Positions 9,001-12,000 of a stretch of 40,488 bases of DNA are shown one piece after another (within the stretch, counting starts at the first letter, position 1; the number at the start of each line of letters is the position of its first letter). A program made the position numbers. This DNA comes from a virus. Taxonomy: Duplodnaviria > Heunggongvirae > Uroviricota > Caudoviricetes. Location of the stretch: IMG/VR virus record IMGVR_UViG_2700989521_000020; one strand, written 5' to 3'.

Positions 9001-12000
9001 CCAGTCACTAAGTGCCAAAATACTTGTTTTTTCTGGAATTGATGCAGAATTAAGCCATTTCCAGATCCCCGGTTCAGAGATATCAATGCCTCGCAGTTTC
9101 ATTGCATTCTGAATCCGCTTAGCCTGACCGCGTCCGCCCACACCTGCATCTAATAATGCCTGTAGTAGTCTCTTTGAGAACGCTTCTTTTAGTTCATCTT
9201 TTTTAACCATACGTTAATTATCAAACATAGTTGACATAACTGTCAGCTAATAGTTAACATTAACTCGAAGTTAACTAAATTAATGGATAGCAGTATGAAT
9301 CCGATACAATTCGCAGTAAAAGCTGTTGGTGGTCAAACAGTCGCTGCCCGTTTATGCGGGTTGTCAAATGTTGCAATTCATAAGTGGGTTAAAAACGGAG
9401 CGTTACCTCGCACCGAATACACGATGAAAACCAACTATTCGGAAATTCTCGCCAATGCATCTGATGGCAAATTTACCGCCGAATGGTTACGCAATGTAGC
9501 GAATCCTGATCGTCAACGATAAGCTCAATTAACACTGCTCTTTTCACAATGGACATTCGTCCTACGTCGCTGAAAAGCGAGCCCCAAGATATCTGACCAA
9601 CTAAGGCCATATGCGTTTCCACGCATACCTTTCAACTAACTATTCACTATTTGGAATCATAAGAAATGTCACAAACAAGTTACAGCAAACTGTCGCAGCG
9701 CGATATCGATCGCGCTGAAACGGATTTACTTATCAACCTGTCAGCTCTGACGCAAAGGGGACTGGCGAAGATGATTGGCTGCCATGAATCGAAGGTCAGT
9801 CGTACCGACTGGCGATACATTGCGGCGATTTTATGTGCGTTCCAGATGGCATCTGATATCAGTCCGATCAGCCGGGCGTTCAACCATGCCATTAACGTTC
9901 ATGCAAATAAAAAACGTCCGGTTGGGGCCGGACGTTCTGAGCAAATCCTGATGAATATTTGATATTCAGGCAGGGCATGGAGCAATACACGGGAATAATT
10001 CTGCCACATCTGGAAGAATTTCGCCAGCAACAACACCAACCGCAGCAGCCTGAAGCCGATTGGGTTAACCCGGAGATACCGGGACCGTCTGTGAAGATGT
10101 GCAGTCACACCAATGTGCAGTCACACCAACCGCAGCAGCCTGAAGCCGATTGGGTTAACCCGGGAGATACCGGGACCGTCTGCGGTATGGAGTAAATCTT
10201 GTATGCGAGGGGACTATGCGTAATTACGCAACAATTTCACCTCAGTTCTGGTTAGGCGATACAGGGCGAAAACTAAGGAAGTCTGGTCCGGAATGTATGG
10301 TAGTGGCGTTGTATATGATGACCTCGCCTCATTCCAATATGCTGGGCCTTTATTACCTGCCTGTTTTGTACATTGCTCACGAAACCGGACTTGATCCTGA
10401 AGGGGCTTCTAAGGGGCTTCAAATGGCTTGCGAGGCTGGTTTTTGCAGCTATGACCATGATTCTGAGGTTGTATGGGTGCATGAAATGGCAGCATGGCAG
10501 GTTGGTGAAGCGCTGAAACCAGGCGATAACCGTTGTGCTGGGGTAAGAAATGAATATTCCGCGTTGCTGGAAAATCCTTTTTTATCATCATTTTATGATA
10601 GATATAAGGATGATTTCCACCTGGATGTCAGACGTGAATCATGTCGGAAAATTGAAGCCCCTTCAGAGCCCCTTTCAAGCCAAGAACAGGAACAGGAACA
10701 GGAAAGAGATAAAACCCTTCTGGTCCATGGCGAAAAAATCGCCACGGACCCACTGGTGGATTCTTGTCCCGTTCTGACTGAACGTCCAGGACCAGCTGGC
10801 ATGACACCGGAAGCAGATTCCGGGCGTTGTGTGCAGCAGGTGCTGCTCGTCGAACCGGAGCAACAACACCAACCGCAGCAGCCTGAAGCCGATTCCGCGA
10901 TGAGCGGGAAGCCGATTGGGTTAACCCGGGCGATGCCGGGACCGTCTGCGGGACGAGTTGATTATCCTGACGTGTTCGAACGGGTCTGGCGTGAATATCC
11001 GCATCGGGCAGGGTCAAACCCGAATAAATCCGCGTTCAATGCCTGGAGGGCCAGATTACGCGAAGGGGTGTCACCGGATGTCGTGCTGGATGGTGTGAGG
11101 CGTTACGCAAGATACCTGGAGGCTACCGGGAAAGTGGGAACTGAATTTGTTCAGCAGGCATCGACGTTTTTTGGCCCGAACAGGAATTTCGAAAATCCGT
11201 GGGCGCTGCCGAAGGCTGGCGCAGTCAGCCTGCGTTGCGTGAATCACATTTCTGAACCGGACACCGAAATTCCGCCGGGTTTCAGGGGGTAATCAGCCAT
11301 GAAAAACATTTCGACAGGAGGGATTCTTGAACGGGTGCGCCGTCTGGCACCACCGCACGTGGCAGCACCGTTCCGGACGACCGACGAATGGCGGGAATGG
11401 CAACTGGCTGAGGGCCGGAAGCGCAGCGAGGAAGTTAACCGCCAGAATCACCAGACGCGGGTTGAAAAAATCCTGAATCGTTCGGGCATCCAGCCGCTTC
11501 ACAGGAAGTGCTCATTCGGGAACTACCGGGTGCAGAACGACGGTCAGCGCCATGCTCTGAGTCAGGCAAAATCCATCGCGGCAGAACTGCATACCGGCTG
11601 CACGAATTTCGTGTTCAGCGGTAAACCTGGCACCGGGAAAAATCACCTTGCAGCAGCGATTGGCAACTGGCTGATGGCGAAGGGGAGAAGCGTGATTATC
11701 GTCACCGTGTCCGATGTCATGAGTGTGTTGCATGACGGCTATGACAACGGCAAGTCTGGTGAGAAATTTTTACAGGAGCTTTGTGGAGTTGACCTTCTGG
11801 TCCTGGATGAAATTGGCATGCAGCGGGATACGCGCAACGAGCAGGTCATACTGAACCAGATCGTCGACCGCAGAACGGCATCACTGCGCAGTGTCGGGAT
11901 GCTGACGAACCTGAATCACGCAGCGATGAGCACACTCCTCGGCGAGCGGGTGATGGACCGTATGACCATGAACGGTGGTCGTTGGGTGAATTTTAACTGG

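Follow-up and report, generated by a model that had tools for sequence, protein, structure and literature searches.

Lambdoid phages are mosaic. In phage lambda, the replication origin ori consists of four 18-bp iterons and an AT-rich region, all of them located inside gene O, and iteron plasmids carry extra initiator-binding repeats upstream of their rep gene that serve in auto-repression and handcuffing. The present work deals with a repeated element of about 60 bp in the replication region of a virus of the class Caudoviricetes (IMG/VR virus record IMGVR_UViG_2700989521_000020), which was analysed as one stretch of 40,488 nucleotides (nt) referred to here as the window. As an earlier note on this DNA had reported, with slightly narrower bounds, the element is present twice (copies A and B) in the spacer between cII and the replication initiator gene and once (copy C) within the initiator coding sequence. 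That note left the choice between origin iterons partly duplicated upstream and a recombination scar that had copied part of the gene. Our analysis supports the second proposal, with copying from the gene to the spacer, at the edge of a vestigial lambda-type cII/oop/O arrangement, and with later change by slippage and unequal crossing-over. We consider it probable that the upstream elements are ectopic copies of the DNA coding for the initiator linker, that is to say a recombination scar that now forms a small variable-number tandem repeat, and that they are neither iterons nor a gene.

The spacer elements match the linker-coding DNA of the initiator gene

Comparison of the three copies showed complete (100%) identity between A and C over their first 36 nt (10026-10061 and 10859-10894), an exact repeat whose chance expectation in 40 kb is about 1e-13 by our own estimate, and 92% identity between B and C over their right halves (49 nt). 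The core common to A, B and C, about 60 bp in length, reads ACACCAACCGCAGCAGCCT-GAAGCCGATT-GGGTTAACCC-GG(G)AGATACCGGGACCGTCTG. The palindrome GGGTTAACCC, already said to be shared by all copies, was found exactly three times in the 40,488 bp, once in each copy; shuffled sequences give an expectation of 0.03 occurrences and 0 of 100 reached three. Copy C was also said to carry one additional short unit. Extra sequence is indeed present there, and it amounts to 23 bases, CCGCGATGAGCGGGAAGCCGATT (10895-10917), made of 13 bp and, at their end, a second GAAGCCGATT unit, rather than to the 10-mer alone. One G is missing from A and present in B and C (CCC-GGAG versus CCCGGGAG), and the two tandem units of the 16-mer ATGTGCAGTCACACCA that separate A from B form a perfect pair in the window. 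The copies are spaced by 90 and 766 bp, with a local GC content of 0.55-0.67.

Alignment of the initiator protein with its relatives revealed a conserved N-domain (amino acids (aa) 1 to ~165), a low-complexity linker and a conserved C-domain that begins at RVDYPDVF. The linker is composed of QEQEQE repeats followed by PEADS-type repeats, and the GAAGCCGATT unit, which occurs three to five times in sister genes, codes for the EAD of the peptide repeat. The linker segment to which copy C belongs was found in every related initiator gene, including those of L008 and L010-L013, which have no upstream copy. In L008, the initiator of a rac-like prophage, the linker and the C-domain are as in the window and the N-domain is completely different. 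It should also be noted that the hexanucleotide run (GAACAG)n at 10684-10704, which codes for QEQEQE, varies by one to two units in near-identical phages, being 12 bp longer in 75/02 Stx and 6 bp longer in PhiR5_2.

Over about 48 nt (10895-10945 compared with L010-L013), the frame of the linker differs between the window lineage (GKPIGLTRAMPGPSAG) and the sister lineage (EADWVVPENTGQPVG), because of a one-base deletion followed by a one-base insertion. Such a compensated frameshift indicates that the amino-acid sequence of the linker is barely constrained. The full-length upstream copies of L007 carry the same deletion and the same insertion, both of them specific to copy C of the window lineage, and the upstream copies therefore appear to have been made from the gene of this lineage, and not the reverse. 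These comparisons support the gene as the source and the spacer as the destination of the copying.

The copies lie at a module junction

To the left of the copies, the 3' end of cII and a minus-strand terminator align with the lambda cII 3' end and the oop terminator (lambda 38569-38739), and the similarity to lambda runs about 45 bp beyond the cII stop codon. The lambda sequence ATTATG, which contains the start codon of O and, read on the opposite strand, the -10 element CATAAT of the po promoter, aligns with AATTCTG in the window; the candidate po -10 element of the window, CAGAAT, is the reverse complement of 10002-10007 and is preceded by TG. Copy A starts exactly where the similarity to lambda stops. 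To the right, homology to sister initiator genes, which are found in a ydaS/ydaT context, begins only at the Shine-Dalgarno sequence and the ATG. The copies are therefore situated at the junction of two modules, and the edges of their homology are sharp, between 10025 and 10026 on one side and near 10185 and 10186 on the other.

In the light of these alignments, the segment between cII and copy A (U) is probably the remnant of a lambda-type junction of cII, po and the start of O, the minus strand would be transcribed into an oop-like RNA, and a lambda-type O gene may have been replaced directly to the right of po. When 9955-10040 was compared by blastn with 50,697 phage records, matches were restricted to the same lineage, and no known gene was found to begin with U. 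A scan of 8000-13500 with Rfam gave AgvB as its sole match, which was sub-threshold and outside the repeats (9909-9967 on the minus strand, E = 0.92).

Upstream copies are confined to one lineage and vary in number

The spacer sequence was detected in 82 of 5,426 complete E. coli genomes, in agreement with the count of 78 genomes in which the N-domain DNA reaches 95% identity or more to that of the window. In another 469 E. coli genomes, many of them O157:H7, ydaS/ydaT and a gene in reverse orientation are followed by an N-domain that is about 75% identical at the DNA level, and the upstream linker copy is absent from all 469. A scan of one genome per bacterial species identified 32 loci in other species that code for the N-domain at 31-72% identity (Raoultella, Citrobacter, Caballeronia, Acinetobacter, Cupriavidus, Janthinobacterium and others); the 800 bp upstream contain no copy of the respective linker in any of the 32. 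At 42-72% identity, the N-domain recurs in loci resembling prophages from many Gammaproteobacteria and Betaproteobacteria, and also in a few metagenome-assembled genomes labelled as other phyla. In IMG/VR, a 16-mer scan returned 37 loci of the same E. coli/Shigella lineage, together with three unrelated chance matches. Far from being universal in related prophages, which the earlier note had left to be settled, the upstream copies are restricted to this one lineage, and the source copy is ancestral and widespread.

Within the lineage, two upstream copies are present in the window and in most loci, one in L005, L019, L022, L036 and L037, and three in L009 and L007. The unit measures 90 bp, or 113 bp when the 23 bp are included; all three units of L007 keep the 23 bp, giving a 113-bp period that was also seen in P0009 and P0010 from other strains. 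The 16-mer ATGTGCAGTCACACCA is present once (P0004), twice or four times (P0002). This 16-mer is most simply explained by a duplication of the 5' end of the repeat itself, followed by divergence, and matches 12 of 16 positions of the L010-type linker; its derivation from a 27-bp internal deletion of the linker was considered and dropped. Copy number, indels and reading frame of the upstream copies vary freely. The C copy of L008 has undergone an independent 24-bp deletion between two GAAGCCGATT units, indicating that the loss of 23-24 bp is a recurrent slippage event. In L006, a hybrid copy is of the upstream type in its left part and of the C type in its right part, and the initiator start, the N-domain and the AAGGGGCTTC repeats described below are lost; RefSeq reports a partial, frameshifted gene. 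Such a hybrid, with the intervening DNA gone, shows recombination between the repeats. Across 29 distinct haplotypes, nucleotide diversity amounts to 0-0.007 for U, A, B and D1 (the segment that follows copy B), to 0.008 for the N-domain, to 0.026 for cII and to 0.034 for the linker, values that are too low to test constraint.

Taken together, the upstream copies combine high identity to their source with sharp junctions, occur in one lineage and stand at a mosaic module boundary, as would be expected of a recombination scar. The element neither tracks the N-domain, nor shows close and regular spacing beside an AT-rich region, nor accompanies all initiators of the same type, the three properties by which iterons would be recognised.

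The small open reading frame across the spacer

Segment U and copies A and B are spanned by a small open reading frame annotated as "hypothetical protein" in phage records. Its products form ten clusters among ~5.8 billion proteins, all from E. coli, with lengths of 42, 42, 46, 51, 58, 62, 72, 76, 88 and 102 aa; the first ~28 residues are common and are followed by three different C-terminal frames. The frame of L007 ends at a TAG after 33 codons, and this locus has no gene call in RefSeq. No Pfam or NCBIfam match was obtained, and a protein search did not find a longer protein with the same N-terminus. The variable lengths, frames and ends and the break in L007 argue that the reading frame is a by-product of the repeats, as had been suspected for its 78-aa form (9959-10195). 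The "hypothetical protein" entered between cII and the initiator in POCJ13, 75/02 Stx, phiSTEC1589-Stx1c and PhiR5_2 and in ~80 E. coli chromosomes is thus probably no gene.

A predicted origin elsewhere in the initiator gene

The motif AAGGGGCTTC occurs exactly three times in the 40-kb window, each time in the initiator gene, twice on the plus strand and once on the minus strand; a one-off variant of it, AAGGGGCTCT, is found at 10665-10674 on the minus strand. Both clusters formed by these motifs flank the part of the gene with the lowest GC content. Pairs of the AGGGGCTT type, with 11-bp spacing, are located at gene nt ~186/197 and ~440/451 in 35 of 38 homologous genes from across the Proteobacteria, and the motif tracks the window-type N-domain. 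The GC content of these genes ranges from 43% to 65% and most of them have a dip near nt 330-360. The orientation of the second cluster differs: the window and most genera have it inverted, L010-L013, L055-L057 and L083 have it direct, and L080 has it mostly direct. With its orientation the encoded peptide changes (RKIEAPSEPL versus RGFEGAFKGL) and the DNA motif stays, which argues for selection on DNA. Cluster 1 also encodes a conserved peptide, EGASKGL, so that part of its conservation may be protein-driven. Judged from sequence, the origin most likely corresponds to the AAGGGGCTTC arrays and the AT-rich core between them (10400-10685) and would be bound by the N-domain. The arrays constitute a testable origin prediction for an initiator family devoid of a Pfam model and distributed from Enterobacteriaceae to Acinetobacter and Burkholderiales.

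Repeats of other types were observed in some relatives. The gene of L008, annotated as "replisome organizer", contains GTCACG repeats with 10-bp spacing, arranged in two clusters 260 bp apart (L008 992-1030 and 1252-1300), which are presumably its own iterons. In the Acinetobacter relatives L060, L063 and L067, AAGGGGCT-type repeats are located 10-40 bp upstream of the initiator start and could be auto-regulatory sites; the window has nothing comparable.

Gene neighbourhood

The features of the region are collected in Table 1. The stretch 9600-11400 is 99.9% identical to POCJ13, a Shigella phage (Stx1-converting Diegovirus), and 97.7-99.2% identical to the phages 75/02 Stx, phiSTEC1589-Stx1c and PhiR5_2. 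No Pfam family was matched by the initiator in a Pfam search, no homology to lambda O was detected by any search run, and its N-domain (aa 1-165; 10216-10713) has neither a Pfam nor an NCBIfam family. Its last 25-80 residues weakly resemble the C-terminus of the primosomal protein DnaT (E about 0.003-0.01). GTTAAC, the HpaI site, is found 20 times in the whole window versus 7.4 expected from shuffles; two of the sites are in the oR operator region (9253 and 9270) and three in the repeat copies. Two further repeats of the window lie far from the replication region: direct repeats of 192 nt each at 39043-39234 and 39286-39477 (79% identity, 243 bp apart), and a terminator-like 31-nt pair, a GC stem followed by TTTTTTATGTCCG, at 20599-20629 and 27426-27456 (81% identity, 6.8 kb apart).

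Table 1. Coordinates of the copies, of the predicted origin and of the neighbouring features in the window
Feature	Position or length	Strand	Remarks
Copy A (upstream linker copy)	10026-10094	+	Without the 23 bp and without one G
Tandem pair of 16-mer ATGTGCAGTCACACCA	10097-10128	+	Between A and B; variant of the 5' end of the repeat
Copy B (upstream linker copy)	10116-10185	+	Without the 23 bp
Copy C (source copy, linker-coding)	10859-10951	+	Initiator codons 215-245
Predicted oop-like antisense RNA over the cII 3' end	~9990-~9905	-	Approximate ends, placed by homology to lambda oop
Intrinsic terminator of the oop-like RNA	9938-9911	-	
Segment U, probable vestigial lambda-type cII-O junction	9963-10025		Holds the putative po promoter; right edge is the left junction of the ectopic copy
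Segment D1	10186-10215	+	Right junction of the ectopic copies, then Shine-Dalgarno GAGGGGA of the initiator gene
Probable by-product open reading frame	9977-10195	+	72 aa from ATG 9977, 78 aa from TTG 9959; across U, A and B; phrog_2751, unknown function
Candidate iteron cluster 1	10400-10432	+	AAGGGGCTTC at 10400 and 10411; degenerate third unit at 10422; 11-bp spacing
AT-rich dip, candidate unwinding region	10548-10620		Between the clusters; GC 0.27-0.32 versus 0.52 for the gene
Candidate iteron cluster 2, inverted	10652-10685	-	AAGGGGCTTC at 10663-10654; AAGGGGCTCT at 10674-10665
CI-like repressor	8440-9210	-	
Cro-like regulator	9283-9522		
cII	9666-9962		Pfam Phage_CII
cII-initiator spacer	253 bp		Holds copies A and B
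Replication initiator gene	10216-11292	+	358 aa; phrog_1701; N-domain, low-complexity linker, C-domain with weakly DnaT-like tail
DnaC-like helicase loader	11299-12039	+	Partner of the initiator C-terminal domain; context only
DUF1627 protein	12065-12835		
DUF977 protein	12832-13281		

Alternative explanations

Some observations weigh against a scar devoid of function. No lineage member with zero upstream copies was seen, every complete member examined keeping at least one, although this retention could reflect either a constraint or just the youth of the lineage. The diversity of U, A, B and D1 is no higher than that of the coding N-domain, a comparison that has almost no power at such divergence. 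The dyad symmetries GGGTTAACCC and CCCGG-N6-CCGGG are present in all copies and give the element the look of a protein-binding site. Finally, a description of the element was not found in the literature searched, which concerned POCJ13, iterons in lambdoid and Stx phages, and the motif sequences. The copies might accordingly be accessory sites for a protein, the candidates being the initiator, the DUF1627 or DUF977 helix-turn-helix proteins and CI/Cro, that would tune initiator expression or link the spacer to the intragenic site in the manner of auto-repression or handcuffing in iteron plasmids. Both palindromes and at least one upstream copy are kept and substitution diversity is low, as such a role would predict, and the iteron-like repeats of the Acinetobacter relatives, just upstream of the initiator start, indicate that operator-type sites exist in the family. 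However, sister initiators have GGGTAGTCCC at the corresponding place of the linker, without the palindrome; copy number, spacing and the internal 23 bp vary freely, the second dyad is altered in L022, and it is AAGGGGCTTC, a motif different from the element, that tracks the N-domain. GTTAAC is also held by the oR operators, but a link to CI/Cro through this hexamer was rejected, owing to its window-wide enrichment and to the geometry of the operator half-sites, AGTTAA-N2-TTAACT, which does not fit the element. We regard accessory binding sites as unlikely, and leave a small chance that some protein binds the dyad core and that the expression of the initiator is affected by the upstream copies. 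That the three copies are initiator-binding origin iterons, two of them displaced upstream, appears highly improbable. Copy C does lie in the middle of the initiator gene, where the iterons of lambda lie in O, the copies are repeated and dyad-symmetric, and the reverse complement of GAAGCCGATT is a variant of AAGGGGCTTC with two mismatches. Yet the idea of GAAGCCGATT as a degenerate iteron was rejected because the linker's EAD repeats are encoded by this unit and because L008, a gene with GTCACG repeats of its own, combines it with a different N-domain. Moreover, the irregular spacing of the copies and their GC-rich surroundings, with no adjacent AT-rich tract, are unlike iteron arrays, the homologous initiators of about 500 other genomes have no upstream copies, and a conserved iteron-like set is located elsewhere in the gene. 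The duplication of origin iterons envisaged by the earlier note is thus not supported.

The two remaining explanations concern the products of the spacer. A real small gene, encoding a functional peptide of repeat-driven length or coupling translation to the initiator gene, would account for the coding sequence annotated in all phage and RefSeq records (L007 aside), for the assignment to a PHROG family, for a possible AGG Shine-Dalgarno sequence before ATG 9977 and for the overlap of the stop codon with the initiator start in some variants. We judge it very unlikely, given that the ten clusters are confined to E. coli and differ in length and C-terminal frame, that domain databases yield no match, that the frame is prematurely closed in L007 and that most of it is a frame-shifted read of linker DNA. 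A structured RNA element within the pR transcript or an antisense RNA, with a role for instance in processing or attenuation, seems extremely improbable. Pairing within or between copies would be possible through the self-complementary GGGUUAACCC and the CCCGG/CCGGG arms, and the oop-like antisense RNA is immediately to the left; but the predicted folding of 9963-10235 was no better than that of shuffles on either strand (z -0.86 and -0.93), the only Rfam match was the sub-threshold one outside the repeats, and the copy number is not fixed. A search of both strands revealed neither promoter-like nor terminator-like sites in A and B; in the repeats as a whole, the only terminator-like match coincides with the end of copy C and consists of a weak 5-bp stem with no real T run.

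A proposed history of the spacer

The recombination scar that we favour could have arisen as follows. The ancestral phage would have had a lambda-like arrangement of cII, oop-po and O, in which O was replaced, just past the po promoter, by a different initiator accompanied by a DnaC-type loader. During or after this replacement, a piece of at least 93 bp of the linker of the new gene would have been left at the left junction, either through tandem duplication of the 5' part of the gene followed by deletion or through template switching, both of which are likely routes. The later, repeat-driven changes are visible in the variants themselves: slippage between two GAAGCCGATT 10-mers removes 23-24 bp, and gain or loss of the 90-bp (or 113-bp) unit leads to one to three copies, as that of the 16-bp unit leads to one to four. 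A crossover between an upstream copy and C deletes the initiator N-domain together with the predicted origin, as in L006. The copies are presumably transcribed with the pR operon and would be open to accidental translation. It is improbable, but conceivable, that the arrangement is of use to the phage: as homology arms that bracket the N-domain and the predicted origin, the direct repeats would allow an excision that disables replication and locks the prophage, or swapping with phages that share the linker; alternatively, a phage protein would bind the dyad core and the number of upstream copies would set initiator dosage, as in a contingency-type switch.

This locus provides a clear and datable example of a replication module grafted behind a lambda-type cII/oop block, and its scar probably became recombinogenic later, up to the deletion of the origin and the DNA-binding domain in one prophage. 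The repeat should not be mistaken for the origin. Differences in its copy number could be a typing marker for this group of Stx1-type prophages.

Comparison with known systems

Like iteron plasmids, the window has repeats upstream of the initiator gene and near or inside it, and the Acinetobacter relatives have AAGGGGCT-type repeats before the start codon. In contrast to those plasmids, the upstream repeats of the window copy the linker and not the AAGGGGCTTC motif. The comparison with lambda ori is closer, in that the origin apparently lies inside the initiator gene, with short repeats about one helical turn apart beside an AT-rich stretch. It fits the AAGGGGCTTC arrays of 10400-10685, however, and not the 60-bp element, and the predicted origin of the window consists of two clusters flanking the AT-rich part, whereas lambda has one cluster beside it.

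The upstream copies themselves behave like variable-number tandem repeats: the 90/113-bp and 16-bp units vary in near-identical prophages, and deletions occur between 10-bp direct repeats. They depart from this class in that the array was seeded from coding DNA ~770 bp away, with the source still in place, which makes possible a larger deletion disabling the initiator, as in L006. The copies also resemble the junction scars of mosaic lambdoid phages. The element is located exactly at the boundary between lambda-like cII/oop/po on the left and the initiator and its DnaC-type loader on the right, the right-hand block is carried behind ydaS/ydaT in other prophages, no conserved product is encoded, and a single recent lineage is concerned. 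Unlike in such scars, what is left over is an internal copy of the incoming gene rather than a fragment of the replaced one; as a consequence, direct repeats bracket the N-domain and the predicted origin, and they have since expanded into a tandem array.

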